From Candidatus Fervidifonticultor secundus (GTDB lineage Bacteria > Sysuimicrobiota > Sysuimicrobiia > Sysuimicrobiales > Humicultoraceae): a stretch of DNA of 64,000 bases. The stretch is from contig JAVKIP010000010.1 of assembly GCA_031459385.1 (NCBI GenBank), positions 36,120-100,119 on the forward strand. The letters run 5' to 3'. Below the pieces are notes generated by a model, which had not been told where the DNA came from, ran no database searches, and worked only from the letters and a program-made list of their open reading frames with translations. The position numbers were made by a program, and so were the translations under genes. Every line of letters starts with the position of its first letter. Position 1 is the first letter of the stretch. Of the stretch, positions 12,054 to 29,623 are shown piece after piece.

Positions 12054-13133
12054 TCACGTCATCGGCACGCGGGTCAGGAGCCGCCCCTCGATCCGCTCGA
12101 GAATATCGGGAATGCTCGGGCCGGTGATGGTGAGGCCGTGGTTGCGCAGGCCTACCACGGCGCGGTTGGGGTCCGGGCTCTGCGCGACCAGCTCGGAGAC
12201 GGCGCGAGCCAGCTCGTAGGTCCCGCACGGGTACTGGATCTGGGTGGACGTCACGCCCTCCATCCAGGCGTGGACGTGGATAATGGCACCCACGCGCGGG
12301 TGCGCGGTGTAGATCATCCAGTGCTCGATGGCATCCACCGAGACCCGGCGCGGTTCGATGTGCGGCGGCACACTGAGCACGATCACGTTGCGGGAGGGCT
12401 CGTACCCTTTGACCATCAGGATGTCCCGCCCGACGGTCTTCAGGTTGCCCTTGTTCACCCCGCTGGCGCTCATCCAGAAGCGCCGGGCGTCCTTGCGGAC
12501 GCTGAGGTTGCCGTAGGAGAGGCCCCCGATGCCGAACAGGCGCTTGACGTGCACCAGGTCGCGCGGTGGCAGCAGCTCCTCGATGGGGAAGGCGGCGGGC
12601 AGCAGCTTGAGCTCGTCCAGACGGCGGCCGGCCTCGGCCAGCTGCCGGGTCAGCGCGTCGCCGTCCCACAGCTCGGGCTCCAGGTCGGGGTGGAACTCGT
12701 TGTTGATGACCAGCTGGGCAGATGCCAGCGGGTAGAGCCGCTCGAAGACCCGTGCGAAGAAGGTCGCGTCGTCGGCTTCGTCGATGAGGAAGTAGCCCTG
12801 CTCGAGGGTCACCACCAGCGCGCGGGCCCGGTGGGCCGCGGCGGGCACCAGGTAGATCACCATGTTGCCCAGGGTGCGGACCAGCAGCGGGTAGACGGCC
12901 GGCAGGATCTCGCCCTCGGGCTGCGGGCCCTCGACGATAGAGACCACGAAGACGGCCTGCGCCTTGCGGCGGAAGGGCCGCGGCGCCTCCCGGTTCGCGA
13001 AGTGCAGGACCACGCGGGGCGAGCGCTCGGGCGTCGTCTCTTCCAACCCCCGGGCCCGCATCACCTGCTGGAGGCCCTGGGCGAACCACTCCTGCACCGG
13101 CGTGCGCGGTGCCCCGGAGCGAGCAAAGGTCAT
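12054..13133 (-). CDS. Class II aldolase/adducin family protein with long N-terminal extension
   Basis: YGNLSVR, SASG..K, IHVH, LRNHG metal ligands in the C-terminal half. Confidence 0.8.
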   Translation of the reverse strand: MTFARSGAPRTPVQEWFAQGLQQVMRARGLEETTPERSPRVVLHFANREAPRPFRRKAQAVFVVSIVEGPQPEGEILPAVYPLLVRTLGNMVIYLVPAAAHRARALVVTLEQGYFLIDEADDATFFARVFERLYPLASAQLVINNEFHPDLEPELWDGDALTRQLAEAGRRLDELKLLPAAFPIEELLPPRDLVHVKRLFGIGGLSYGNLSVRKDARRFWMSASGVNKGNLKTVGRDILMVKGYEPSRNVIVLSVPPHIEPRRVSVDAIEHWMIYTAHPRVGAIIHVHAWMEGVTSTQIQYPCGTYELARAVSELVAQSPDPNRAVVGLRNHGLTITGPSIPDILERIEGRLLTRVPMT

Positions 13134-13226
13134 GGCGCGATCCTCCACGGCGCTGGGCGCATCGGTCTTCGAACTCCGCTCCTTACTCTAGCGCAAAATG
13201 CCGGGCGCCGCCGCAGGCCGTGGCGG

Positions 13227-14198
13227 CTACCGCGCCCGCATCAGCACGAACGACGCCAGTGCCTGCAGGCTCGCCCGGGCCGGTCCGGGCGGCAGCGGGT
13301 GGAGCGCGGTCACGGCCCGGTCGGCGTAGGCCTGCGCCACGTGCAGCGCCCGCCGCACGCCGCCGTAGCGATCCACGAGCGCCTGCAGTTCGGCAAGCCC
13401 CCCGGCCCCACCGCGGACCAGCGCCCGCAGGCGGTCGCGATCCGCCGGGGGGGCCTCGCGCAGCGCGGCGATGACCGGCAGGGTCGTCTTTCCGGTGTCG
13501 ATGTCGCTGCCGATGGGCTTCCCCATGGCCTCGGGGTCGCCGACCAGGTCCAGCGCATCGTCGGTGATCTGGAAGCACATCCCCCAGGCCAGGCCGAAGG
13601 CTTCGAGCGCGTCGGCGACCGCGGGTGTAGCCCCGGCTACCAGCCCGCCCGCCCGGCAGGCCGCCGCGAACAGGCGCGCGGTCTTGCCTTCGATGATGCG
13701 GAAGTAGACGGCGTCGTCGTCGTAGGGCTCGCCGCCGACCTTGGTCGCCAGGATCTCGGCCTCGCTCATGGCCACGGCCGCCCGCGCGATCGTCGGCGCG
13801 ACCTGGGGATGCCGGATCCGGCTCACCAGGTCGAACGCGGTCGCGAAGAGGTAGTCGCCCAGCAGCACGGCGATCTGGTTGCCCCAGAGCACATTGACCG
13901 TGGAGACACCGCGGCGCAGATCGGAGGCGTCGATCACGTCGTCGTGGACCAGCGAGGCGATGTGGATCAACTCCACGGCCCCGGCCAACCAGAGGCGCTG
14001 CTCGTCGGCCCCGCCCGCCGCCGCCGCCGACAGCAGCGCCAGCGCCGGGCGGACCAGCTTGCCGCGCGAGGCCAGCACGTGCTCGACGAGCTCGCCGATG
14101 AAGGGGTCGTCGGTGCGCAGCTCGCGTCGCAGCAGATCGTACAGCCCCTCGAGGTCGTCGGCGACGGGCCGGTAGATCTCCTGGAGATCCAACGCCAC
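13227..14198 (-). CDS. Polyprenyl diphosphate synthase (HepT/IspB-like)
   Basis: GKLVRP, ELIH.ASLVHDDVID....RRG, KTA, FQITDDALD, GKP.G.D. Start estimated. Confidence 0.93.
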   Translation of the reverse strand: MALDLQEIYRPVADDLEGLYDLLRRELRTDDPFIGELVEHVLASRGKLVRPALALLSAAAAGGADEQRLWLAGAVELIHIASLVHDDVIDASDLRRGVSTVNVLWGNQIAVLLGDYLFATAFDLVSRIRHPQVAPTIARAAVAMSEAEILATKVGGEPYDDDAVYFRIIEGKTARLFAAACRAGGLVAGATPAVADALEAFGLAWGMCFQITDDALDLVGDPEAMGKPIGSDIDTGKTTLPVIAALREAPPADRDRLRALVRGGAGGLAELQALVDRYGGVRRALHVAQAYADRAVTALHPLPPGPARASLQALASFVLMRAR

Positions 14199-14200
14199 GC

Positions 14201-14617
14201 TCAACGGTCCACCCTGATGGTCATCGCCATGCCGGCCTCGCGGTGGCCGGGGATGTTGCAGTAGGCGGTGTGCGCTCCCGGCGGCAGCTCGAAGATCGCG
14301 GTCCTGGTCTCCCCTGGCGGCACGCCGTCGATGGCCGCGCCCGGTATCGCGTCGACGACCAGGTTGTGCTCCACCAGCCCCTCGTTCCTGACCCGCACGG
14401 CGATCCGCCCGGCCCGCACCACGACCGAGGGCGGCGCAAACGCCCACTCGCGCGCGACCACCTCCACGGTCGCCGCCGGGGAGCGCTCGGGCGACCCGCT
14501 CCGCGGACCGCAGGCGCCGCCAACCAGTGCCAGCACCAGCAGCGCCGCGCGGTAGGCCCGCAGGCTCCGCCGGTGCCCTGACCCCCTCTCTCCCGGCGAG
14601 AGAAGCCGCCGTCTCAC
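14201..14617 (-). CDS. Cupredoxin (type 1 copper) lipoprotein
   Basis: Lipobox-like GGAC; HNL ... YCNIPGHREAGM (C-x4-H-x4-M). Confidence 0.85.
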   Translation of the reverse strand: MRRRLLSPGERGSGHRRSLRAYRAALLVLALVGGACGPRSGSPERSPAATVEVVAREWAFAPPSVVVRAGRIAVRVRNEGLVEHNLVVDAIPGAAIDGVPPGETRTAIFELPPGAHTAYCNIPGHREAGMAMTIRVDR

Positions 14618-14627
14618 GCCCTAGCCT

Positions 14628-14732
14628 TCAGGCTTCAGCGATGAGGCCGAACGACGCGACGAACGCCAGCAGCAGGAAGAAGAAGACGTAGAAGAGCAGG
14701 TAGGCCAGCCAGACGCGCAGCGGGCGCTTCAT
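14628..14732 (-). CDS. 34-aa single-TM protein
   Basis: MKRPLRVWLAYLLFYVFFFLLLAFVASFGLIAEA. ATGA overlap with the upstream gene, GGAGG RBS, high GC3. Confidence 0.7.
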   Translation of the reverse strand: MKRPLRVWLAYLLFYVFFFLLLAFVASFGLIAEA

Positions 14733-15217
14733 GCCCCTCCCTCCTCCGCAGGCTGGGCGGCGGCCGCCGGCCGCCGCGCGGGCCCCGTGCCGCTGGCTGC
14801 CGGCCCCAGGGCCCGGAGGCGCTCCACCATGGCCGCGATGTCGGCGAGAAACGCCTCCCGGTCGTGGAGCCCATGGGCCAGCATCTGCAGGCGCTCCGGC
14901 GGCACCCTGCGTCGCTGCAGCCGCCGCTGCAACTGGTCCACGCGCTCGCGCATCAGGTAGTTGCCCTCGCGGTTCAGGCAGTCGCCGTAGGGGCACCCGA
15001 CCACGAAGACGCCGTCGGCGCCGGCCTTGAGCGCGTCCTCCAGCCAGCCTGGCCGGATGAAGCCCGAGCACGGGATGCGGATGAGGACCACGGACGGGTG
15101 GGCGAGCAGCCGGCCGGCCGCATCCGCCAGGTCGGTCGTGGCCACCGCCCAGTCGCATACGAAGCCCACGATCCGGGGAGCCCAGGCGCCGTGCGCGGTC
15201 GATGCCTGCGCCGTCAT
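14729..15217 (-). CDS. MvhD/FlpD-like [2Fe-2S] protein
   Basis: GFVCDW, RIPCSG, GADGV.VVGC..GDC...EGN; all four Cys ligands present. Confidence 0.88.
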   Translation of the reverse strand: MTAQASTAHGAWAPRIVGFVCDWAVATTDLADAAGRLLAHPSVVLIRIPCSGFIRPGWLEDALKAGADGVFVVGCPYGDCLNREGNYLMRERVDQLQRRLQRRRVPPERLQMLAHGLHDREAFLADIAAMVERLRALGPAASGTGPARRPAAAAQPAEEGGA

Positions 15218-16389
15218 GCCCGCACCGCCGCTGCCACCTGCACCGCCTCCTGCACGCGCCGCGTCACGTCGGCTTCCAGCAGACCCGGGAGTTCCAGCGC
15301 CTCGAACGGGCACGCGCCGATGCAGATGCCGCACTCGACGCACCGCGAGTCGATGACCACCGCCAGCAGCTTGCGGCTCGCCGCAGCCCGCGACAGGCCG
15401 GGGTGGGGCGACGGGACCATGACGATGGCGTTGTAGGGGCAGTCGTAGTAGCACAACTCGCAGCCCGTGCAGTTGCCGTCGATGACCTGTGCCACACCCG
15501 CGTGCCGCACGCCCATCTCCCGCGGCGTCTCGCGGCTGAGATAGGGGATGACGAACCCCGCCCCCAGCGTCACTGCCACCAGGGCCACCACCAGACCGGG
15601 CGGCACGAAGCCGGCGAGCCAGAACGGCAGCAGGAAGAAGACGTCCAGCGGCATCGCCTGCGGGGCGGTTCCGGGCCGGGCCGGGACCCCGCCGACCGCC
15701 GGGATCACCGCCGCCAGCACCGTTACCAGCCCCAGGCTGACCAGCACCCAGGTGGCAGGCGGCCAGACCTTCGGATGGCGCAGCCGCACGTAGTGCCACC
15801 ACAGCAGCACGTAGAGCAGCGACGCCGGTCCGACGTGCAGCAACAGAATGCGGGGCAGGGTGCCCTCCGACAGCCCGGCGCCGCCCACCAGCAGGCCGGC
15901 CAGCGCGTCGCCGACGGCCGGGATGGCCCGCAGCAGTCGGTCGAACAGGCCCAGCACGGCCAGCGCCCGCTCGTCCCATACCAGGATGTAGCCGGTGGCG
16001 CCCACGAAGCCGCCGAAGATGAGCATGAACATCCCCGAGATCCACGGGGAGTCGCGCGAGAACAGGTACCGGTCGGTGAACCAGTTCCGGAAGAGGTGCA
16101 GCAGGGCTGCCACGATGAACGCATCGGCCGCGTACCGGTGGATGCCCCGGATCAACCCCCCGTACGGCACCTGCTCGGTCAGGTAGACCACCGACGGGTG
16201 CGCGCCGCCGAGGCTCGGCACGTAGTAGAAGAAGATGAAGATCCCGGAGAGGACCAGGATGAACAGGAACAGGTTCGTGAGCCCGCCGGTGTAGTAGAGC
16301 GGATTCCAGTCCGTGGGGTAGATGCGGTTGATGCCCACGTCCAGGCGCAGGGTGAACCGTTGCAGCGCGGTCAGGGCTTTCCGGTACAC
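15214..16389 (-). CDS. Cytochrome b fused to a C-terminal 2x[4Fe-4S] ferredoxin domain
   Basis: Two H-x13-H pairs (HRYAADAFIVAALLH; HVGPASLLYVLLWWH), then CTGCELCYYDCP and CVECGICIGACP. Confidence 0.9.
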   Translation of the reverse strand: MYRKALTALQRFTLRLDVGINRIYPTDWNPLYYTGGLTNLFLFILVLSGIFIFFYYVPSLGGAHPSVVYLTEQVPYGGLIRGIHRYAADAFIVAALLHLFRNWFTDRYLFSRDSPWISGMFMLIFGGFVGATGYILVWDERALAVLGLFDRLLRAIPAVGDALAGLLVGGAGLSEGTLPRILLLHVGPASLLYVLLWWHYVRLRHPKVWPPATWVLVSLGLVTVLAAVIPAVGGVPARPGTAPQAMPLDVFFLLPFWLAGFVPPGLVVALVAVTLGAGFVIPYLSRETPREMGVRHAGVAQVIDGNCTGCELCYYDCPYNAIVMVPSPHPGLSRAAASRKLLAVVIDSRCVECGICIGACPFEALELPGLLEADVTRRVQEAVQVAAAVRA

Positions 16390-16399
16390 AGGGCCCCCC

Positions 16400-16669
16400 T
16401 CACGGCACGGGCTTGACCCACCGCCCGCGCAGGTCGTCCTCCGCCTCGGCGCGGCGCGGCCCGATCGTCCCCAGCTTGCGGAGCAGCAGCAGGATCAGGC
16501 CGTAGACGATGAACAGCACACCCAGGGCGGCGCCGCCGAGCTGCCAGAACACGCGGCGCTCGGCGCTGCCCAGGGCCTCGCCCAGCACGATGAGCGCCGC
16601 GCAGGCCGCACCCACCACCGCGAGCCCCAGGACCCCGCTGGTGTACCTGCGGCTGCTGTCCTCCATCAT
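16400..16669 (-). CDS. Small two-TM membrane protein
   Basis: MMEDSSRRYTSGVLGLAVVG...; translationally coupled within the bc cluster. Confidence 0.7.
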   Translation of the reverse strand: MMEDSSRRYTSGVLGLAVVGAACAALIVLGEALGSAERRVFWQLGGAALGVLFIVYGLILLLLRKLGTIGPRRAEAEDDLRGRWVKPVP

Positions 16670-16947
16670 GCCGATCCGGCACCCCCCTGCGGGCGATCCG
16701 CCCGCCGGTCCAACCAGCGGTCGAACAGCGGCATCGGCCGACGCGTGCGGCCCGCGGTCCGGTCGGCCGCGTAGATGACGAACGCCAGGTACCCCAGGCT
16801 GACCCAGAACGCCGCCATCCAGCCCAGGGCCTCGACCGGCCCGTACAGCCGCTGGCCTTCCAGGGCACTGCGCACCCCCTGCCACAGGCGCGAGAAGCTC
16901 TCCACCGCCACCGCGAACGCCGCCACGGAGCCGCCGAGCCGCAGCAT
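16666..16947 (-). CDS. Small membrane protein
   Basis: 93 aa, hydrophobic (LGWMAAFWVSLGYLAFVIY); starts 3 nt after the cytochrome b stop. Confidence 0.7.
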   Translation of the reverse strand: MLRLGGSVAAFAVAVESFSRLWQGVRSALEGQRLYGPVEALGWMAAFWVSLGYLAFVIYAADRTAGRTRRPMPLFDRWLDRRADRPQGGAGSA

Positions 16948-16950
16948 CGC

Positions 16951-18138
16951 CTAGTGCGCCTCCGCCCGCGCGACCCCGGCGGCTGCCACCGCGCGGCCGG
17001 AGGCGCCGGCCGCTGCCTGCGCCGCGGCGCGCGCCTGCTGCCGGCGGTACCGGAGCTCCCAGACGAACGCCAGCGTCAGCACGACGGTCGTCACCAGCAA
17101 CACCAGCGGCGGCTCGCGCTCGATCACAGCGATGTTGAACAGGATCAACGCCGTGAAGACCAGGAAGTAGACCAGCGCCAGCAGACCCACCACGAAGAAG
17201 AACGGACGCTCCAGGGGCCGGCGGCCCTTGCTGCGGTCGAGAAACGGCACCAGCATTCCGAAGCCGATCAGCAGCCCGGGCCCCAGGCCCGCCCACAGCG
17301 GCGGCGTGTACTTCACGTACTGGTAGAGCGCCAGGAAGTACCAGTCCGAGAGGATGGGCAGCGGAGTGCGGTTGGGATCGGCGCGGCGGCCGAGCTCCGC
17401 CGGCAGCGCCCAGGAGATGTAGACCAGCATGACCGAGAACAGCAGGATCGGAAACAGCGACATGTTCAGGCGCTGCCGCCGCGTGCGGTAGTAGAACACC
17501 TCGATGACGATGAGCAGCACCAGCGAGATCCCGAAGTGCAGGGCGTAGAAGCGCGTGAGGGTGGCGGCGCCGATGGCCGGCCCGCCCAGGAACAGGTAGG
17601 CGATCATGGAGCCGACCTGGAACCGCTCGCCGATGACCGGGATCTTGGCAGTGAGCTCGTCGAAGTACACCGGCACGGTCAGCACCGTCTTGGCCGCCCA
17701 GAACGCCCGCTGGTTCCAGATGAGCAGGTAGCCGGTGATCCCGGAGATCATGGCCAGCACGAGCCCCGCGAACCCCCAGATCCAGCTTAGCTCGCCCGGC
17801 CGTTTGTACTCGCCCAGGAAGTACATGCGGTAGATGCGGAGGATGATGCACAGGATCACGCCGTCGGCCGCGTACTTGTGGACGCCGCGGATCAGCCAGC
17901 CCAGCGGCACCGCGTGCTGGATGTGCAGGATGGAGTTGTACGCGCCCTCGGGCGTCGGCTCGTACCAGAGCATGAGCAGGATGCCGCTGACCACGGTGAC
18001 GAGCCAGAAGTAGTACAGCATCGGGCCCAGCAGGTAGAACGGGTTCGCCTGCCGGGTCACCATCGTCTCGTCGAACAGGTCCAGCCGGCTCCGGCGGTCC
18101 CGGTACCACTCGCGCAGGTTGTCCCACACCCTGGCCAT
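16951..18138 (-). CDS. qcrB: Cytochrome b of a Rieske/cyt b complex, atypical
   Basis: GWLIRGVH, TGYLL.W.Q.AFWA, IPVIG, LTRFYALH, PEWY-equivalent TP..ILSDWYFL. Both bH-side His are absent. Confidence 0.9.
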   Translation of the reverse strand: MARVWDNLREWYRDRRSRLDLFDETMVTRQANPFYLLGPMLYYFWLVTVVSGILLMLWYEPTPEGAYNSILHIQHAVPLGWLIRGVHKYAADGVILCIILRIYRMYFLGEYKRPGELSWIWGFAGLVLAMISGITGYLLIWNQRAFWAAKTVLTVPVYFDELTAKIPVIGERFQVGSMIAYLFLGGPAIGAATLTRFYALHFGISLVLLIVIEVFYYRTRRQRLNMSLFPILLFSVMLVYISWALPAELGRRADPNRTPLPILSDWYFLALYQYVKYTPPLWAGLGPGLLIGFGMLVPFLDRSKGRRPLERPFFFVVGLLALVYFLVFTALILFNIAVIEREPPLVLLVTTVVLTLAFVWELRYRRQQARAAAQAAAGASGRAVAAAGVARAEAH

Positions 18139-18183: not shown

Positions 18184-18846
18184 CTAGGCGATCCCGCCCG
18201 GCTCGACGTGGCGCACCAGCACCTGGTCGCCCTCGACGGTGTAGAAGAACGTCCGCGGGGGCCGCGGGGCTGGTCCCGACAGCACCCGCCCGGGCTGCTC
18301 GGGATCGGCCGGGTCGTAGATGCTCAGGTGGCACGGGCATCCCATGAGGGCATGCTGGCGGCTCTTGGGCGGGACGTAGCCACCGTAGCCCGCGGTGATC
18401 TCGCGCCAGTCGGCGACGAAGTTGTAGATGCACCCCAGGTGCGGGCAGATCCGGGAGAAGACGATGATCTCGCTCTCGGTGAACTGCGGCGTCTCCCCGA
18501 TGGCGCGCACCCAGTCCCAGGGCATGCGGATCTTGGTCGGCAGGCGGATCGCCACGCCCGGCACCGACGCGCTCCGGAAGCCCTCGGGCGTGTACTGGGG
18601 GTACTTCTGGGTGTAGACAAAGTACTTGAAGTCCCAGGGCTTCTGCAGTTCGGCCAGCGTCGCCGCCACGACCGGCTCGCCCGCCGGCGGATCGTGCTTG
18701 GTCGGCTGCAGCACGTTGAAGGGCTCCACGTTCGGCTTGAGGAAGCGCAAAAGCGGCGAACCGAACGCGACGAGTCCTCCCACCAGCGGCAGCGCCGCAG
18801 CGGCGCGGAGGAAGCGGCGGCGATCCAGGACGCGGTCGTGGGCCAT
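18184..18846 (-). CDS. qcrA: Rieske [2Fe-2S] subunit
   Basis: Tat motif DRRRFLR, CPHLGC, CPCHLSIY, GPAPRP. Confidence 0.93.
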   Translation of the reverse strand: MAHDRVLDRRRFLRAAAALPLVGGLVAFGSPLLRFLKPNVEPFNVLQPTKHDPPAGEPVVAATLAELQKPWDFKYFVYTQKYPQYTPEGFRSASVPGVAIRLPTKIRMPWDWVRAIGETPQFTESEIIVFSRICPHLGCIYNFVADWREITAGYGGYVPPKSRQHALMGCPCHLSIYDPADPEQPGRVLSGPAPRPPRTFFYTVEGDQVLVRHVEPGGIA

Positions 18847-18922: not shown

Positions 18923-19858
18923 TCACGGCTGCTGCCCGCGCGGCGGCGCGTAGTCGTACATGAAAGTCCGCACGTAGTCCACCAGTGCCCAGATCTCGTC
19001 CTCCTCGAGCTTGCCCCGGTACGCGGGCATCAGGCCGCGGCCGTCCGCGATACGCTGGAAGAGCTCGGTGGGCTTGCGGGCCGCCAGGAAGTTGGCGTCG
19101 GTGAAGATGCCGGCCCCGACGCGATCCCGCCAGCCCCACACGCCGGCCGCCATCTCCTCGGACAGCCGGCCGCCCCGGCCGTCGCCGGCGGGGCCGTGGC
19201 AGTCGGCGCACGTGGCGACCCGCCCGCCGCCGATGTCCAGCGCCCGGGTCTGATAGATCTCCCTACCGCGCGCGATGGTCTGCGGCGTGGTGGCGAATGT
19301 CCAGGCGTAGAACAGCACGTCCCAGATCTGCTCGTCGGTGAGCGTCGCCGGCCCCTTGTTGGCGCCGTAGGCCGGCTTCCGGCCGAACGCCGGCATGGCC
19401 GTGTGCGGGCGGCCGAGCTTGATCGTCTCGAAGAGCACCCATGGCGCGTTCAGGCGCATCGCGATCTGGTTGTGGAAGTTGGCGGGACGGGACGGGATCC
19501 TCTCACCCTTGATCGCCAAGCCCCAGAGCCTGAAGAAATCGGTGAGGGGGTTCTTCTGCGGCGACGTCAGGCCGCTGGCGGCCGGACCGTCGCCGAACCC
19601 TTCGTCGCCGTGACAGACCGCACAGGTGCGCTCGAACGTGGCCCGCCCGCGCACCGCGGAGGGTTTGAAGCCGGGGGCGCCGTCCACCAGTGGCCGCAGG
19701 ACCGCCTGTTGCCCCAGCCCCGCACCAACCGTCGCCGCGGCGCCGCGCACGCGCACGGTCGGCTGGCATCCCGCGGCGAACACAGCGACAGCGACGATCG
19801 CGGGGAGCACGCGCAGCGCGATCGTCAGCGAGCGGGCGGCTTCCATCGTCAACGGCAT
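18923..19858 (-). CDS. Diheme c-type cytochrome, probable lipoprotein
   Basis: CAVCH...MPAF and CADCH...MPAY; lipobox FAAGC. Start approximate. Confidence 0.9.
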   Translation of the reverse strand: MPLTMEAARSLTIALRVLPAIVAVAVFAAGCQPTVRVRGAAATVGAGLGQQAVLRPLVDGAPGFKPSAVRGRATFERTCAVCHGDEGFGDGPAASGLTSPQKNPLTDFFRLWGLAIKGERIPSRPANFHNQIAMRLNAPWVLFETIKLGRPHTAMPAFGRKPAYGANKGPATLTDEQIWDVLFYAWTFATTPQTIARGREIYQTRALDIGGGRVATCADCHGPAGDGRGGRLSEEMAAGVWGWRDRVGAGIFTDANFLAARKPTELFQRIADGRGLMPAYRGKLEEDEIWALVDYVRTFMYDYAPPRGQQP

Positions 19859-19937
19859 GAACGATTCCACGCCCTGCAGGCAACTCCTCCCCTGGCCCGC
19901 GCGGGGTCCCTGCCACGGTGTCGAGCGGCGGCTCCGA

Positions 19938-20891: not shown

Positions 20892-21163
20892 GCGCCGCCT
20901 CCGTCCAGGTGCCGCGCCGCGCGGGCGGCCGCATCTTCGAGCGTCGCCCGCTGTGCGTGGTAGTCAGCGTCGCTCAGCTTGCCCGTGGCCCAGTCGAGCT
21001 CGAGGTCCTGGAGCGCGCGCAGCGCCACGGCGTGCGCGGCCTCCAGGGCCGCGCGCGCGTCGCCAGCCTCCACGGGCGCGCGGCGCCAGGTGGGGGCCAG
21101 CAGGTACCACGCTAGCGCCATGGCGGCGACGAGGAAGGCAGCCGCGGACGCGTCCTCGATCAC
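20888..21163 (-). CDS. CcmI N-terminal-like small protein
   Basis: TM followed by ALQDLELDWATGKLSDADY; coupled to the ccmF stop. Confidence 0.65.
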   Translation of the reverse strand: MIEDASAAAFLVAAMALAWYLLAPTWRRAPVEAGDARAALEAAHAVALRALQDLELDWATGKLSDADYHAQRATLEDAAARAARHLDGGGA

Positions 21164-23154
21164 GGCGCACCCGCCGCCGGCCAGGCTGCGGGCTCCCCCA
21201 GGGGCAGCGCGGCCAGGTGCCGCCGGCGGCGCTCGGGCAGCGCTGCGAGCAGCGCGCCGAGGGCCAGGATCCCGCCACCGGCCCACAGCCAGGACACCAG
21301 CGGATGGATCAGCACGCGCAGCGTCGCACGGCCCTGGGGCGTCCAGTCGGCCAGGATCACGTAGAGGTCTTCACGCGGGGAGGCCCGGATCGCCACCTCG
21401 TGCATCGGCTGCCCCTGGGTCCGGTAGAACAGGCGCCGGGGCCGTAGGTGGCCGAGCGCCCGCTCGCCCCGCCACACCGCCACCGTGGCCTCGACGACGT
21501 CGATCCCCGGCCGCTCGGTTGCGTCCAGCCCCCGGAACTCGAGCGTGTACCCGCCGAACTGGAACCGTTCGCCCGCCCCCACGGTCGCCTGACTCTGCGT
21601 GGCGAAGGCGCTGCTCCCGGCGACGCCCGCCAGCATCAGGAGCACGCCGAGGTGCACCGTGTACCCCCCGTAGCGGCGGCGGTTCCGCCAGACGAGCTGT
21701 CCCAGCGCCCGGGCCACGGGCTCGCCGCGCGCGACGCGCACCCGCATACCGCGCACCGCCTCCAGCCCGATCGTTGCCACGACGAACAGCACCAGGACGA
21801 AGACCAGCAGCGCGCCCGCGGTCCGCACACCCGCAGCGGCAAGGACCGCGCCGCCCAGAAGGGCCGCCGCCGCCGGCCAGGCGAAGTTGCGCGCCAGCTG
21901 CTCGGGCGACGCCCGCCGCCAGGGCAGCAGCGGCCCCACCCCCATGAGCACCAGGAGGCCCACGGCGATGGGCGTCATCACACGGTTGAAGTACGGCGGC
22001 CCGACGTTGCTCTTCACGCCTTCGATCGCCTCGGTCAGCGCGGGGAAGATCGTCCCCACGAAGACCACGGCGGTGGCCACCATGAAGAGCAGGTTGTTGG
22101 CCAGGAAGGCGGTCTCACGGCTCACCACCGCCTCGATGGCCGCCTCGCGCCGCAGCTGGTCCCACCGCCACGCCAGCAGGCCGAAGCCAACCAGCAGCAC
22201 CACCGCCAGGAAGCTCAGGAACGCGGGGCCCACGGCCGACAGCGCGAACGAGTGCACCGACGCGATGATGCCGCTGCGCACCAGGAACGTCCCGAAGAGC
22301 GTCAACCCGAAGGCCAGGATGACGAGCGCCACGTTCCACGTCGCCAGCATGCCGCGGCGCTCCTGGATCTGGATCGAGTGGAGGAACGCGGTCGCCACCA
22401 GCCACGGCATCAGCGCGGCGTTCTCCACGGGATCCCAGGCCCAGTAGCCGCCCCAGCCCAGGACCACGTACGACCACTTGGCGCCGAAGAGCAGGCCGAG
22501 CGAGAGGCACGTCCAGGCCACCAGCACCCAGCGCCGCGCCAGCGCCACCCAGGTTTCGTCGAGCCGGCCGGTCACCAGCGCCGCGATCGCGATCGCAAAG
22601 GGCACGCTCATGCCCACGAACCCCAGGTAGAGCATCGGCGGGTGCGCGGCCATCCACGGGTTGCGCAGCAGCGGGTTCAAGCCCTGCCCGTCGGGCGGCG
22701 GGGGCACCAGGCGTGCGAACGGGTCGCTGGCCCATGCCAGCATGCCCGAGAAGAACAGCGCCACAGCCAGGAGCACCACCGTCGCCGGCGCCTGCAGCGC
22801 CGGATGCCCCCGGAGCGCGCGGATGCCGGCTACCAGATAGCCAGCCAGGATCAGCGCCCACAGCAGCAGGGCGCCGTCGTGCCCGCCCCAGAATGCGGTG
22901 AGCGTGTAGAACAGCGGCTGGGCTGACTCGCTGGCGAGCGCCACGAACCGCACCGAGAAGTCGCGCTGGAGGAGCGCCGTCCACAACGCCGCCGCCGCCA
23001 GCGCCACCAGCAGCGCCCACGCGGTTGCCGCACGGCGCCCGGCCTCCAGCAGGCCGCCGTGCTGACGGCGGATGCCGAGCACGGTGACCACGATGCCGTA
23101 GGCCGCGGTGACCACGGCCGCCAGGACCGCGAACCGGCCCACCTCACCCGCCAT
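21160..23154 (-). CDS. ccmF: Cytochrome c heme lyase CcmF
   Basis: WGGHDG, GLNPLL, HPP.LY.G, WGGYWAWDPVENA, SVHSF. Confidence 0.97.
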   Translation of the reverse strand: MAGEVGRFAVLAAVVTAAYGIVVTVLGIRRQHGGLLEAGRRAATAWALLVALAAAALWTALLQRDFSVRFVALASESAQPLFYTLTAFWGGHDGALLLWALILAGYLVAGIRALRGHPALQAPATVVLLAVALFFSGMLAWASDPFARLVPPPPDGQGLNPLLRNPWMAAHPPMLYLGFVGMSVPFAIAIAALVTGRLDETWVALARRWVLVAWTCLSLGLLFGAKWSYVVLGWGGYWAWDPVENAALMPWLVATAFLHSIQIQERRGMLATWNVALVILAFGLTLFGTFLVRSGIIASVHSFALSAVGPAFLSFLAVVLLVGFGLLAWRWDQLRREAAIEAVVSRETAFLANNLLFMVATAVVFVGTIFPALTEAIEGVKSNVGPPYFNRVMTPIAVGLLVLMGVGPLLPWRRASPEQLARNFAWPAAAALLGGAVLAAAGVRTAGALLVFVLVLFVVATIGLEAVRGMRVRVARGEPVARALGQLVWRNRRRYGGYTVHLGVLLMLAGVAGSSAFATQSQATVGAGERFQFGGYTLEFRGLDATERPGIDVVEATVAVWRGERALGHLRPRRLFYRTQGQPMHEVAIRASPREDLYVILADWTPQGRATLRVLIHPLVSWLWAGGGILALGALLAALPERRRRHLAALPLGEPAAWPAAGAP

Positions 23155-25909: not shown

Positions 25910-27520
25910 TCACCTGCGGGCCCCGGCGGGCGCGCTGTCGTCGGCCAGCAGGTCCACCAGGCGGTCGACAGCCTCCACCGGAAAGAGCAGGAACGGATAG
26001 GTGCGTGCCGTGGTCGCCTCGGCGTCCTGCTCCAGGCGGTCGAGGCGCCGCAGCGCGTCCTGCACCGCCGCCACTCGATCTGCGACCTGTACCCGGAGGA
26101 TCTCGTTGATCTCGCGGATCCGCTGCGTGGCCTGCCGCCGCTCGCGGCGCGTGCGGGCCTCCCCGCGCTCCAGCCGGCGGATCAGGGCCCACTTCTCCTC
26201 GACCAGGGCCCGGTGCGGGCCATCGTGGGCCGGGAGGAACCGGTCGGGGTTGTGCTGCAGGTCGAGCAGCTGGCGGTGGAGCCGGCGCCGCTCGTCGGCC
26301 GGATGCGCGCCGCTGGCGAACGGCAGCCACAGCGTTGCGGTCACCGTGGCGTAGGGCGGCGGCGCCACGCCGAAGAAGGCGCGCGCGATGGCATCGGTGG
26401 CCCGGTCGTAGCGCCCGCCGCCGATGCCGTGGATGAACAGGTCGGCCACCCCCAGGCGCACGAAGGCCGTGAGCGTCAGCGCCCGGGGCCGGATCGGCAA
26501 CGCCGCGAACGCCGGCTCGTCGGGGTCCTGGGGGACCAAGCCCACCGGCTCGGCCTCGGCCAGGAGCCGGCCTGTGGCGACCTCCACCATCAGCGGCCGG
26601 CGCCGGCCGTGCCGGACGACCCAGAAGGGCGCCTCGACCACACCGTCCTGAATGAGCAGATCGGGAAACGGCTGGGCGGTGGTGCGCACGCCGTAGTGCT
26701 CCCGGTACGCGGCGAGCGCCGCGTTGTGCACCTCGGCAAAGTGTCGGGCGTCCTGCACGATGGCCCAGCAGAAGCGGCGAAACGCCGCGCTCCGGTGCAG
26801 CCGGGAGACGGGCAGGTCCAGATAGGGGCGCGGTCCCTCCAGCGCGCGCCGGACGAACGTCACGGCACCGGCCAGCCCCGCAGTCGTAGGAGGAGGCGGC
26901 AGCGCCAGCGTCCGCTCCCAGCCGGCCAGCACGGCGGGGACGGCGACGGTCCGGATTCGGGCGTCGATCTCGGCGAGGAAGGCGCGCCACTGCGCTGGCG
27001 TCGGCGCCGGCATCGCCTCGGCGGGCACGTCGGGCGCTGCCTCGGCCAGCACCACACGCGCACGGACCAGCCGGCCATCGGCGACGCATGGCACCTCGGC
27101 CGCGACCACGTCCAGCGCGTCGCTGTCCACGACGCAGTGGAGCCCCACGCCGCCCGCGGGCACCAGCCGGCTCATGGCCAGCACCTTGATCCAGATGCCC
27201 GGATGGGCCAGCACGGGCTGGTGGCCGGTGGCCAGCAACGGCCCGGCGTCGGCCGGGCCAGCCGGCGACGCGCCCGCCCGCGGCGCACTGATCCCCAGGC
27301 TGCGGGTGTAGGCCTCGGCCAGGGCCAGCACCTCGGCCCGCGCCTGGCGCCGCCACGCCCCCAGCGCCACGCCCCCGATGGCGACGGCGGTGCCGGCCAG
27401 CCGGGCGTCGGCGTCGCGCGCCATGGCGAGCCACTGGCCGAACGGCGGGGCTGCCGCGGCCGCAGGCGAAGTGGCGGGGATCTCGAGCTCGAAGGCGGGC
27501 CAGGCGATCGGCGCCGTCAT
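25910..27520 (-). CDS. Hypothetical protein with distant BshC-like motifs
   Basis: ATGHQP..HPGIWIK, VDSD, RPRALTLT, FIHGIGGGRYD, C-terminal coiled coil; coupled to the BshB-like gene. Confidence 0.6.
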   Translation of the reverse strand: MTAPIAWPAFELEIPATSPAAAAAPPFGQWLAMARDADARLAGTAVAIGGVALGAWRRQARAEVLALAEAYTRSLGISAPRAGASPAGPADAGPLLATGHQPVLAHPGIWIKVLAMSRLVPAGGVGLHCVVDSDALDVVAAEVPCVADGRLVRARVVLAEAAPDVPAEAMPAPTPAQWRAFLAEIDARIRTVAVPAVLAGWERTLALPPPPTTAGLAGAVTFVRRALEGPRPYLDLPVSRLHRSAAFRRFCWAIVQDARHFAEVHNAALAAYREHYGVRTTAQPFPDLLIQDGVVEAPFWVVRHGRRRPLMVEVATGRLLAEAEPVGLVPQDPDEPAFAALPIRPRALTLTAFVRLGVADLFIHGIGGGRYDRATDAIARAFFGVAPPPYATVTATLWLPFASGAHPADERRRLHRQLLDLQHNPDRFLPAHDGPHRALVEEKWALIRRLERGEARTRRERRQATQRIREINEILRVQVADRVAAVQDALRRLDRLEQDAEATTARTYPFLLFPVEAVDRLVDLLADDSAPAGARR

Positions 27521-28200
27521 TAGATCAGCCCATCCCACCGCGCCACCCCGATCACCTCGCGGCAGGCGAACGGTTCGCCGAACGGCCGGCCGATGAGCTG
27601 GCCGTAGTAGGCGCACTCCGTGCGGATGGCGTCGAGAATCCAGCTGGTGCCGCGGGAGTCGTTGAACTGCGAAGCGTAGGCGGCGACCGCAGCCATCTTC
27701 GTGTCCATGTACGGCGTGATGTCCACGACGAACGCCGGCTGCGCGTGCAGCCGGTAGTGCGTGCTGAAGAAATGGTAGACGCGCTGGGGGTAGTACGGCT
27801 CGCCGCGCATGTCGGTCTTGGTCAGCTTGGCCCAGAACCGCGCCGCCTCGCCGATGGCACACGCCGCCACGTGGTCGGGGTGCGCGTCGACCCAGTAGGG
27901 GAGGCACAGCACCTGGGGCCGGACCTCGCGGATCACCTCGGCCAGCGCGCGGCGCGCCTCCAGGGTCGGCTCCAGCGCCCGGTTCGGGAAGTCGAGCGTG
28001 ATGCGCCGCACGCCCAGCAGCCTCGCCGCCTCCGCGGCCTCCTGCGCCCGGCGCTCGGGCGTGCCCATGGGTGTCGGCTCGCCATTCGTCAGGTCGCAGA
28101 TCACCACCTCGTGGCCCTGGGCCCGCAGCAGGCCGATGGTCCCGCCCATGCCGATCTCCACGTCGTCGGGGTGCGGCCCTACGGCGAGGACACGAGCCAC
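27520..28200 (-). CDS. PIG-L/LmbE family de-N-acetylase, BshB1-like
   Basis: PHPDDVEIGMGG, DLTNGE, R..EA, HPDH, VDIT...K...AYASQF. GGAGG RBS. Confidence 0.88.
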   Translation of the reverse strand: MARVLAVGPHPDDVEIGMGGTIGLLRAQGHEVVICDLTNGEPTPMGTPERRAQEAAEAARLLGVRRITLDFPNRALEPTLEARRALAEVIREVRPQVLCLPYWVDAHPDHVAACAIGEAARFWAKLTKTDMRGEPYYPQRVYHFFSTHYRLHAQPAFVVDITPYMDTKMAAVAAYASQFNDSRGTSWILDAIRTECAYYGQLIGRPFGEPFACREVIGVARWDGLI

Positions 28201-28892
28201 CGTCGTACCTCCTGCTCGAGCACCGTGTGGTAGTAGCGCCGGCGCACCGCGACGTCGTCGAGCCCGCCCCAGAACCGCCGGTGGGGGTTCTTGTAGATCC
28301 GCGGCACCGCCACCTCCACGACCCGCAGCCGGTGGGCCGCGGCCTGGATCCACACCTGCAGGGGCAACCCGTACGATGGCTCGTCTAACTGGAAAGCGCG
28401 CAGCGCTGTGGCGCGGTACGCCTTGAAGCCGCAGAACGCGTCGGTGAGCGGGTAGCCCGTGAGCTCGCGCAGCCGCGCGGTGATCTCGGCGTTCAGTGCC
28501 CGGCGCTCCGGGGGCGCCGGGTCCCCGCCTGCGGCGGGATCCAGGTAGCGGCTGCCCGAGACGATGTCGGCGTGCTCCAGTGCCTCGAGGAACTGCGGGA
28601 TCTGCTGCGGCTCGTGCTGTGCGTCGCAGTCGATGGTGACCGCGGCCTCGTAGCGCTGGGCCAGTGCGTAGGCGAACCCGTCGATGAGCGACTGCCCGTA
28701 GCCCTGGTTGCGCGGATGGCGCAGCACGGCCAGGTCGGAATGCGCCCGCAGGATCTCCGGGGACCGATCGGTGGACCCATCGTCCACCACCAGCACATCT
28801 GCCTGGGGCGCCGCCGCACGGACTTGAGCCAGCACCTGCGGCAGCGTCGCCTCCTCATTGTACAGCGGCAGGACGATCAGCGTGCGTCGCAT
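28179..28892 (-). CDS. Family 2 glycosyltransferase (DPM1-like)
   Basis: PLYNEE, VDDGSTD, N.GYG, DCDAQH, GSRY, TDAFCGFKAY. Confidence 0.9.
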   Translation of the reverse strand: MRRTLIVLPLYNEEATLPQVLAQVRAAAPQADVLVVDDGSTDRSPEILRAHSDLAVLRHPRNQGYGQSLIDGFAYALAQRYEAAVTIDCDAQHEPQQIPQFLEALEHADIVSGSRYLDPAAGGDPAPPERRALNAEITARLRELTGYPLTDAFCGFKAYRATALRAFQLDEPSYGLPLQVWIQAAAHRLRVVEVAVPRIYKNPHRRFWGGLDDVAVRRRYYHTVLEQEVRRWLVSSP

Positions 28893-28948
28893 CGTCGCGT
28901 TCAACGCCCACGGCGCGCCATGGGATTCCCGGCTGCCGGCACGAGGGG

Positions 28949-29623
28949 TCAGAGGAGCTTCGACCCGTTGATGACCAGCTTGAAGTCGCAGCCCAGGAAG
29001 ACCGCGGCCCGCCGGCACATGATCATTCGGCCCAGGAAGATCTCGAAGTACTCCATCACCTGCGAGATGGTCGTGTCGATGGTCAGCTCCAGGGTGACGG
29101 TCTTGCTCTTCTCGTCGACCCGCAGGAACGAGTGCTGGACGGCGTAGTTCACCCGGTCGTGGATGTCGAACGTGGCGGGGTCGGGGTTGCGGACGCGGGT
29201 ACGGTGGACGTCGGACTTGTCCGCCAGGATCACCGCCGCCCCCACGGCGCTCACAGCCTCCCCGTGGGCTTCCTCGTGGTTTCCGATGGCGCCCATGACC
29301 ACGGCCCGCTCGTCGGCGGGCATGCCCAGACGCTGCAGGATGCGGTCGGCGAGCACGGCGCCGGTGTGCTCGTGGTTCTCCCGGCTCACCAGGTTGCCGA
29401 TATCGTGCAGGTAGGCCGCGATGGCGGCGACCTGCACCGTTCGCTCGTCGTGGCCCAGCCGGCGCAGGACATTGGCCGCGATGTTGGAGGTCAGGGTGGC
29501 GTGCCGGCTGCCGTGCTCCGTGTACCCGATGGCCCCCAGGTACTCGTTGGCCTTCTGGATGAACGCCTCGACCTCGGGGTCCCGCTTGACGTCCTCGAGC
29601 GTGAGGGCTCCCGGCGCCGCCAT
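28949..29623 (-). CDS. HD-domain phosphohydrolase
   Basis: YTEHG.RH, LHDIGN, GNHEE, LADKSDVHRTRVR. Confidence 0.88.
   Translation of the reverse strand: MAAPGALTLEDVKRDPEVEAFIQKANEYLGAIGYTEHGSRHATLTSNIAANVLRRLGHDERTVQVAAIAAYLHDIGNLVSRENHEHTGAVLADRILQRLGMPADERAVVMGAIGNHEEAHGEAVSAVGAAVILADKSDVHRTRVRNPDPATFDIHDRVNYAVQHSFLRVDEKSKTVTLELTIDTTISQVMEYFEIFLGRMIMCRRAAVFLGCDFKLVINGSKLL

Follow-up and report, generated by a model that had tools for sequence, protein, structure and literature searches.

A conserved cytochrome b without haem bH ligands, paired with a ferredoxin-fused cytochrome b of opposite defect, suggests a possible heterodimeric complex III

The window, a 64,000-nucleotide stretch of DNA from Candidatus Fervidifonticultor secundus, encodes a cytochrome b (b1) that retains the ligands of haem bL and a Qo-like motif and has lost both ligands of haem bH, and this loss is a family-wide trait, neither chance nor sequencing error. 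The finding is real and conserved and, as far as sequences can tell, mechanistically suggestive. We consider it probable, with good confidence, that b1 and the product of a second cytochrome b gene in the same operon (b2) form a heterodimer of some kind. Whether this heterodimer bifurcates menaquinol, sending one electron to cytochrome c and the oxidase and one to a cytoplasmic acceptor, seems to us evenly balanced. Our full proposal is tentative: a natural heterodimeric complex III, found in several phyla, in which all low-potential electrons would cross from bL to bL and O2-driven quinol bifurcation, by way of a ferredoxin-MvhD arm like that of HdrA, would supply the cytoplasm with electrons at potentials between those of NAD(P)H and ferredoxin, with no Q-cycle. 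The genes and residues concerned are listed in Table 1.

Table 1. Genes of the b1-b2 operon and key residues of b1, in window positions
Feature	Position	Strand	Remarks
CcmF	21160..23154	minus	cytochrome c maturation cluster, directly upstream
Dihaem cytochrome c	18923..19870	minus	membrane-anchored; CAVCH, CADCH
Rieske protein	18184..18846	minus	CPHLGC / CPCHLSIY; S-Y high-potential signature
Cytochrome b1	16951..18138	minus	395 aa; PF00033 and PF00032 above cut-off
b1 bL ligand H87	17880-17878	minus	
b1 bL ligand H201	17538-17536	minus	
b1 bH position R101	17838-17836	minus	codon CGC
b1 bH position F215	17496-17494	minus	
b1 Qo elements			W147-A148, S264-D-W-Y267, Y272
b1 E213			invariant
s1	16666..16947	minus	small membrane protein, 93 aa; no Pfam family; syntenic in close relatives
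s2	16400..16669	minus	small two-helix membrane protein, 89 aa; syntenic in close relatives
Cytochrome b2	15214..16389	minus	cytochrome b + 2x[4Fe-4S], 391 aa
MvhD/FlpD-type protein	14732..15217	minus	[2Fe-2S]; four conserved Cys (21, 50, 75, 80)
s3	14628..14732	minus	34-aa single-helix protein ending SFGLIAE
Cupredoxin	14201..14617	minus	His/Cys/His/Met-type motif; matched in 20/80 loci (best 80 of 229)

Helix B of b1 reads H87-KYAADGVILCIIL-R101 and the helix D sequence is H201-FGISLVLLIVIEV-F215, followed by residues without a His. Among solved chains b1 is closest to cytochrome b6, whose second helix-B His aligns with R101, and a pairwise alignment with b2 that is gap-free through helices B and D sets H87 against H84, R101 against H98, H201 against H185, and F215 against H199. 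The AlphaFold model of b1 (88-row alignment, mean pLDDT 82, pTM 0.82; a single chain with no haems) has a cytochrome b fold, with bc1 cytochrome b structures as its top Foldseek matches at a TM of about 0.6. The initial annotation had described a cytochrome b without either bH ligand that keeps its bL ligands, the cd-helix region (WAAKTVLTVP...IPVIG), and a Qo-like motif reading SDWY at the PEWY position, and each of these points held up, the Qo elements being the best-conserved part of the protein. No haem ci Cys occurs at its position in b1. The protein thus has the cytochrome b fold, the bL His pair, the Qo residues, and an adjacent Rieske protein and c-type cytochrome, and it lacks the bH His pair and a Qi site of either the bc1 His/Asp type or the b6f haem ci Cys type. 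By these marks b1 is not a canonical Q-cycle cytochrome b, yet it may work like the Qo half of one.

A genome scan for b1 kept the best 80 of 229 loci, of which the 74 with at least 300 aligned residues were counted; selection was by b1, and many of the loci are closely related. Arg occupies position 101 in 72 of these 74 and Lys in the remaining two, and H87, W147, A148, H201, E213, the SDWY motif (with Ser in place of Pro), and Y272 are each present in every locus. Position 215 is His in only three of them, each of which has R101, so that close homologues also lack the bH His pair. The protein homologues listed agree, with Arg at position 101 in 119 of 120 and Lys in the other, and with H87, H201, E213, and SDWY in 120/120. 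The helix-C Gly that we take to pack against haem bH is kept in 6/74 b1 and 67/67 b2 proteins (best 80 of 229 loci) and in all 116 control cytochromes b, which were taken from a profile search and include a few b2-like rows. Since this Gly is mostly gone from b1, the bH pocket itself appears altered and not the ligands alone, and an R101-E213 ion pair probably fills it. The initial annotation had further argued that losing both ligands speaks against a sequencing error, which the presence of R/K101 with E213 at all 74 loci (best 80 of 229) confirms, and that b1 alone could not finish a Q-cycle, a prediction that the conserved loss supports.

Of the 41 genomes searched in the order, 37 carry a b1 orthologue with at least 64% identity, two have distant matches only, and two have no match. 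The best 80 of 229 loci fall in Ca. Sysuimicrobiota (the nearest named relatives, at 84-88%), Armatimonadota, and Melainabacteria, along with one Anaerolineae and one record labelled Bacillota. In a quick tree 24 b1-type rows form one clade with a support of 99, and a deeper PDWY branch (P0137, P0139, P0140) shares the Arg/Glu pattern. In two members of that branch, P0139 and P0140, insertions of about 90 and 290 residues lengthen the periplasmic ab loop; the two proteins were considered as b1-b2 fusions and rejected, being single b1-type proteins with an insertion. A plasmid search returned distant ordinary cytochromes b only. One genome that has the b1-b2 pair elsewhere also holds a lone bH-less cytochrome b (L039:8001-9224) without Rieske or b2, adjoining a chromate-transporter-like gene.

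The operon runs on the minus strand in the order ccm genes, dihaem cytochrome c, Rieske, b1, s1, s2, b2, MvhD, s3, and cupredoxin, the last probably a periplasmic carrier. Among the best 80 of 229 loci, b2 adjoins b1 in 69 of the 70 with enough flank, MvhD follows b2 in 64/64, and Rieske precedes b1 in 71/72, the lone b1 copy L039 being the exception. Upstream of the operon in Melainabacteria and some Armatimonadota lie ccoN-ccoO of a C-family oxidase. The identities of b1 and b2 are correlated (r 0.97), which we do not count as evidence of contact because operon inheritance predicts it. The C-terminal motif of s3, SFGLIAE, also ends the b1 homologue P0125, which suggests that s3 is a subunit of the complex; s1 did not align to the small gene after b1 in one Melainabacteria locus, so homology of s1 to the C-terminal extensions of distant b1 proteins is unsupported.

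Directly downstream of the operon, and in several relatives as well, is a polyprenyl diphosphate synthase-like gene (window 13227-14165), followed by a class II aldolase-domain gene (12054-13148). Deacetylase-like and glycosyltransferase genes (27520-29018), together with a 665-aa open reading frame (25910-27907), are syntenic with the ccm cluster and resemble genes for the biosynthesis of bacillithiol-type thiols. In one Sysuimicrobiota lineage a CcoN-like haem-copper oxidase subunit I lies directly after MvhD (L060:11365-12756, L080:7577-8986; similar matches in eight more loci). In these two sequences none of the six ligand positions has a His, yet the frames are long and open.

Apart from b1 and b2, the only cytochrome b of this family encoded in the source genome (G000) is a b1 duplicate in a second ccm-cytochrome c-Rieske-b1 region (C29:1-10557; 84% protein identity, GC 69% versus 72%), which ends at the contig end and is perhaps bin contamination. 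None of its cytochromes b combines Qo, bL, bH, and Qi, so a canonical Q-cycle homodimer was not found there. The genome also encodes an A-type oxidase and has a complete nuo operon and a Hox-type hydrogenase locus, and a weak second MvhD-family match (C14:10416-10688) lies inside a molybdopterin oxidoreductase/NrfD-type cluster.

The second cytochrome b shows the reverse pattern. The haem ligands of b2 are H84, H98, H185, and H199, and all four His as well as the helix-C Trp and Gly are present in 67/67 proteins (best 80 of 229 b1 loci). At the position of Rhodobacter capsulatus G158, the numbering of which was moved from 1zrt via a proteobacterial cytochrome b, b1 has A148 (Ala in 74/74 loci) and control cytochromes b have Ala, Gly, or Ser in 108 of 116, while the corresponding position 145 of b2 (V145 here) is Leu, Ile, or Val in 65/67, the b1 and b2 counts being from the best 80 of 229 b1 loci. 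In 63 matched loci (best 80 of 229), conservation of the cd1 and Qo-motif segments is 0.90 and 0.99 in b1 and 0.51 and 0.60 in b2. In sequence, then, the Qo position of b2 is blocked and its Qo motif has decayed, the opposite of the b1 defect. The n-side ends of its helices B and D are conserved (0.83 and 0.79), and R101, W197, and R202 of b2 are invariant. Both proteins share a 65-residue spacing and a GxHxYAAD motif, which suggests that they may have arisen by duplication, although tree support for a common origin is only 33 (two long-branch rows left out).

An AlphaFold monomer of b2, with the fold confirmed, places the ferredoxin after the last membrane helix, which by cytochrome b topology would put it on the cytoplasmic side. 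Ferredoxin and MvhD together match residues about 571-775 of the HdrA2 profile, its C-terminal ferredoxin-MvhD arm. Fused b2-ferredoxin-MvhD proteins exist, other relatives of b2 (two proteins tested) are fused to 2Fe-2S, FAD, and NAD domains, and b2 groups with the fused forms P0271-P0290 in a single clade (support 100). A second scan, started from b2, gave 79 metagenome loci, 45 of them of at least 7 kb; in these 45, an apparent eNOR-type oxidase subunit I occurs in 34, SCO in 39, haem o synthase in 32, and hemerythrin in 26. Only 3 of the 45 carry b1 with Rieske, so b2 does not need b1, and all four b1 genes met from this side lack the bH His. These patterns are consistent with b2 as a portable wire on which b1 depends.

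Most b2-like fusions of this second scan belong to a widespread operon without a Rieske gene (L115:4945-11484 and most of L116-L194), in which the fusion bears a periplasmic domain. The operon comprises CuA subunit II, eNOR-type subunit I (H-x-x-Q-Q-I-N), haem o synthase, SCO, cytochrome b-ferredoxin-MvhD, and hemerythrin. Four clusters (L134, L182, L183, L191) contain two b2-type genes, one with 2Fe-2S/FAD/NAD domains and one with ferredoxin-MvhD, possibly a second kind of cytochrome b heterodimer.

Recognized features of a Qi site are missing from both proteins. The haem ci Cys is absent in b1 and b2, and in both the helix-D bL His and the Qo-motif position are a median of 65 residues apart, versus 88 in 107 controls, the loop after helix D being about 23 residues shorter. 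The pattern P-x(3-6)-[KRH][DE], our own construct standing for the Qi loop, is found in 0/74 b1 and 0/67 b2 proteins (best 80 of 229 loci) and in 76/107 controls. The Rieske signature is S-Y in 63/73 and S-F in 10/73 (best 80 of 229 b1 loci). The available text of PMC4122944 assigns S-Y to high and S-F to upper-middle potential and states that xDWY cytochromes b normally pair with a low-potential Rieske protein and menaquinone. In the source genome menB adjoins a menA-like gene; across the 26 genomes compared, menaquinone genes are patchy, with menB above cut-off in 14 and MqnA/D in 3, which leaves room in some hosts for a high-potential quinone that would make the Rieske signature ordinary. 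Arithmetic from the symmetry rule in the accessible part of PMC12954380 would place bL of b1 near 2(-80)-(260 to 300) = -420 to -460 mV. No NAD(P) oxidoreductase gene was found among the operon genes of the window or in 15 neighbourhoods, and HdrA, the usual partner of MvhD, is present in only 14/41 genomes and was not found in the source genome, so it was rejected as the acceptor there.

We hypothesize that a heterodimer of b1 and b2 replaces the usual homodimer and that menaquinol would be oxidized at the Qo site of b1. One electron would pass through Rieske to the dihaem cytochrome c, perhaps on to the cupredoxin, and then to the terminal oxidase, while the other would travel from bL of b1 to bL and bH of b2, through the two [4Fe-4S] clusters and the MvhD [2Fe-2S] cluster, to a cytoplasmic acceptor and not to a quinone at Qi. 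Candidate acceptors are NAD(P)+ via a flavoprotein, a thiol system, and ferredoxin, with no acceptor gene in the operon; ferredoxin reduction would be marginal, since the electron crosses the membrane against the potential. The heterodimer is favoured by the complementary defects (Qo and bL without bH in b1; bL and bH with a blocked Qo in b2), by the near-constant adjacency of Rieske, b1, b2, and MvhD, and by the engineered G158W/H212N bc1, which turns over through bL-bL transfer according to the portion of PMC4330944 available. Electron export is favoured by the absence of canonical Qi features from b1 and b2, by the fusion of b2 relatives to FAD/NAD-binding domains, and by the high-potential Rieske signature together with the menB and menA-like genes, which lead to the very low bL potential given above. 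The dependence between b1 and b2 is weakened by the b2-like proteins that mostly occur without b1 and by the lone b1 L039, and export by an operon without an acceptor gene in a genome without an HdrA match.

Other readings account for part of this evidence. The heterodimer might complete a Q-cycle at a noncanonical quinone site of b2, with ferredoxin-MvhD feeding electrons in, as in a proposal for cyclic flow through b6f, or sensing redox state. Such a scheme requires no unknown acceptor, fits the conserved n-side helix ends of b2 and hosts that are aerobes with an A-type or C-family oxidase, and is exactly how the engineered cross-inactivated bc1 works in the accessible text of PMC4330944. 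We nevertheless think it unlikely, if a serious contender: b2 is without both recognized Qi architectures (haem ci Cys and K/D loop motif), its conserved n-side residues may just hold bH and the ferredoxin, and running a plain Q-cycle on menaquinone with a high-potential Rieske protein would be wasteful of energy. It is improbable that the two cytochromes b work apart, as homodimers or modules of their own, with b1 acting as a linear quinol:cytochrome c oxidoreductase with bL as a transient store and b2-ferredoxin-MvhD as an independent wire, for example in oxidase or copper-centre assembly. The usual location of b2-like fusions in CuA subunit II-oxidase subunit I-haem o synthase-SCO operons without Rieske, and the lone L039 copy, are what this predicts, but a bH-knockout bc1 has no functional Qo-Qi connection (PMC4330944, in the part available), b2 nearly always adjoins b1 in different phyla, as it does in four more loci reached by the scan for b2, and the two losses are exactly complementary.

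The heterodimer could also run mainly in reverse, a low-potential cytoplasmic electron arriving through MvhD, ferredoxin, bH, and the two bL haems and joining a high-potential one from cytochrome c and Rieske to reduce quinone at Qo. The wiring is symmetric, the source genome carries the Hox-type hydrogenase locus, and the ferredoxin-MvhD arm of HdrA is an input path in methanogens. Against this, many lineages link the operon to O2 reductase genes, which implies flow toward the oxidase, and the host is an aerobe with no Rieske/cytochrome b system besides this one; we regard confurcation as quite improbable. There is only a slim chance that b1 binds a second haem through other ligands (Tyr216/217, Glu213, or a small-subunit residue): E213 is invariant, aromatic residues cluster at 215-217, and His215 occurs in the three loci noted above, but positions 215-217 vary freely (F/Y/L/V/I/Q), the packing Gly is replaced by A, L, S, or F in 68/74 (best 80 of 229), the neighbouring Trp is lost in distant members, and an invariant Arg and Glu at matching depth better fit an ion pair. 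The unusual residues themselves are all that speaks for a sequencing error or a decaying pseudogene, the chance of which is negligible given the intact orthologues in most genomes of the order, the invariant Qo residues, and the well-supported clade; conservation refutes it.

Literature searches, which may have missed a prior mention, returned no account of a cytochrome b without bH ligands that has a ferredoxin-fused cytochrome b as its partner, and the available parts of PMC3509893, PMC7908018, PMC11962464, PMC13343851, and PMC11214002 contain nothing on the b1/b2 pair. The broad survey of Kao and Hunte, in the portion of PMC4122944 at hand, dropped sequences lacking the four His before analysis and noted only a Pyrobaculum exception, so the b1 family would have been filtered out of it. 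Cytochromes b are taken to have four His ligands without exception, a rule from which the b1 family departs. A physiological role of bL-bL transfer has been argued from engineered mutants; b1 and b2 appear to be a natural cross-inactivated layout in which it could be tested in a natural enzyme. If the second electron does go to the cytoplasm, the pair would let aerobes obtain low-potential reductant by way of quinones, a route that has until now been suggested chiefly for anammox. Heterodimeric complex III would then span phyla that include the non-photosynthetic sisters of Cyanobacteria, and the complex III of Melainabacteria would be reinterpreted as something other than a b6f-like Q-cycle enzyme.

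Compared with bc1, b6f, and Gram-positive bc complexes, b1 shares the cytochrome b fold, the bL His pair, the cd helix, the position of the Qo motif, the Y302 equivalent, and the adjacent Rieske protein and c-type cytochrome; it differs in having no bH ligands, no Qi features, an SDWY motif, and a second cytochrome b with MvhD. Natural loss of a bH ligand is known from the Pyrobaculum cytochrome b without a fourth His, which in the text available from PMC4122944 involves one His and not two, is archaeal, and has no partner described. The same source names b2-type fusions the PDWF-FeS clade, without Rieske. With this clade b2 shares a four-His cytochrome b, 4Fe-4S clusters, and an adjacent MvhD, but its operon includes a Rieske gene; the tree used for this comparison contains b2 and the fused forms but not the clade's named Magnetospirillum and Turneriella proteins. 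The cytochrome b-FeS proteins of eNOR operons, for which a quinol:NAD+ role has been proposed (bioRxiv 10.64898/2026.01.22.701106, available portion), resemble b2 in their fusion to 4Fe-4S and MvhD or FAD/NAD domains. As far as the accessible text of these two sources goes, both groups are described without Rieske and without a bH-less partner.

The Melainabacteria operon cited as complex III-IV, in which a C-family oxidase is accompanied by what have been called either two cytochrome bc proteins or subunits of b6f (10.1101/531145; PMC6349859), is very probably the same operon, which appears as ccoN-ccoO-cytochrome c-Rieske-b1-b2-MvhD in L098-L109; the parts of these accounts available mention neither the lost His nor a heterodimer. 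For the anammox complexes Kuste4569-74 and Kustd1480-85, the mismatch of a high-potential Rieske protein with menaquinone has been used, in the available text of PMC12954380, to argue for a very low bL potential and NAD(P) reduction. They may resemble the b1/b2 system in this pairing, which the Rieske signature and the men genes predict for it, and they resemble it in a proposed bifurcation through Fe-S centres to a cytoplasmic low-potential acceptor, but that text models them as homodimers with bN and cN haems and an NAD(P) oxidoreductase, in contrast to a Qo subunit without bH and an operon without a flavoprotein. The cross-inactivated Rhodobacter bc1, as described in the accessible part of PMC4330944, carries the Qo knockout G158W in one half and the bH knockout H212N in the other and turns over via bL-bL transfer, so that, as in b1 and b2, one half has Qo without bH and the other has bH with a bulky residue at G158. 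Whereas that enzyme is a laboratory fusion with a normal Qi end, b1 and b2 bear no Qi marks, occur naturally, are encoded by two genes, and carry their Fe-S clusters on the half that retains bH.
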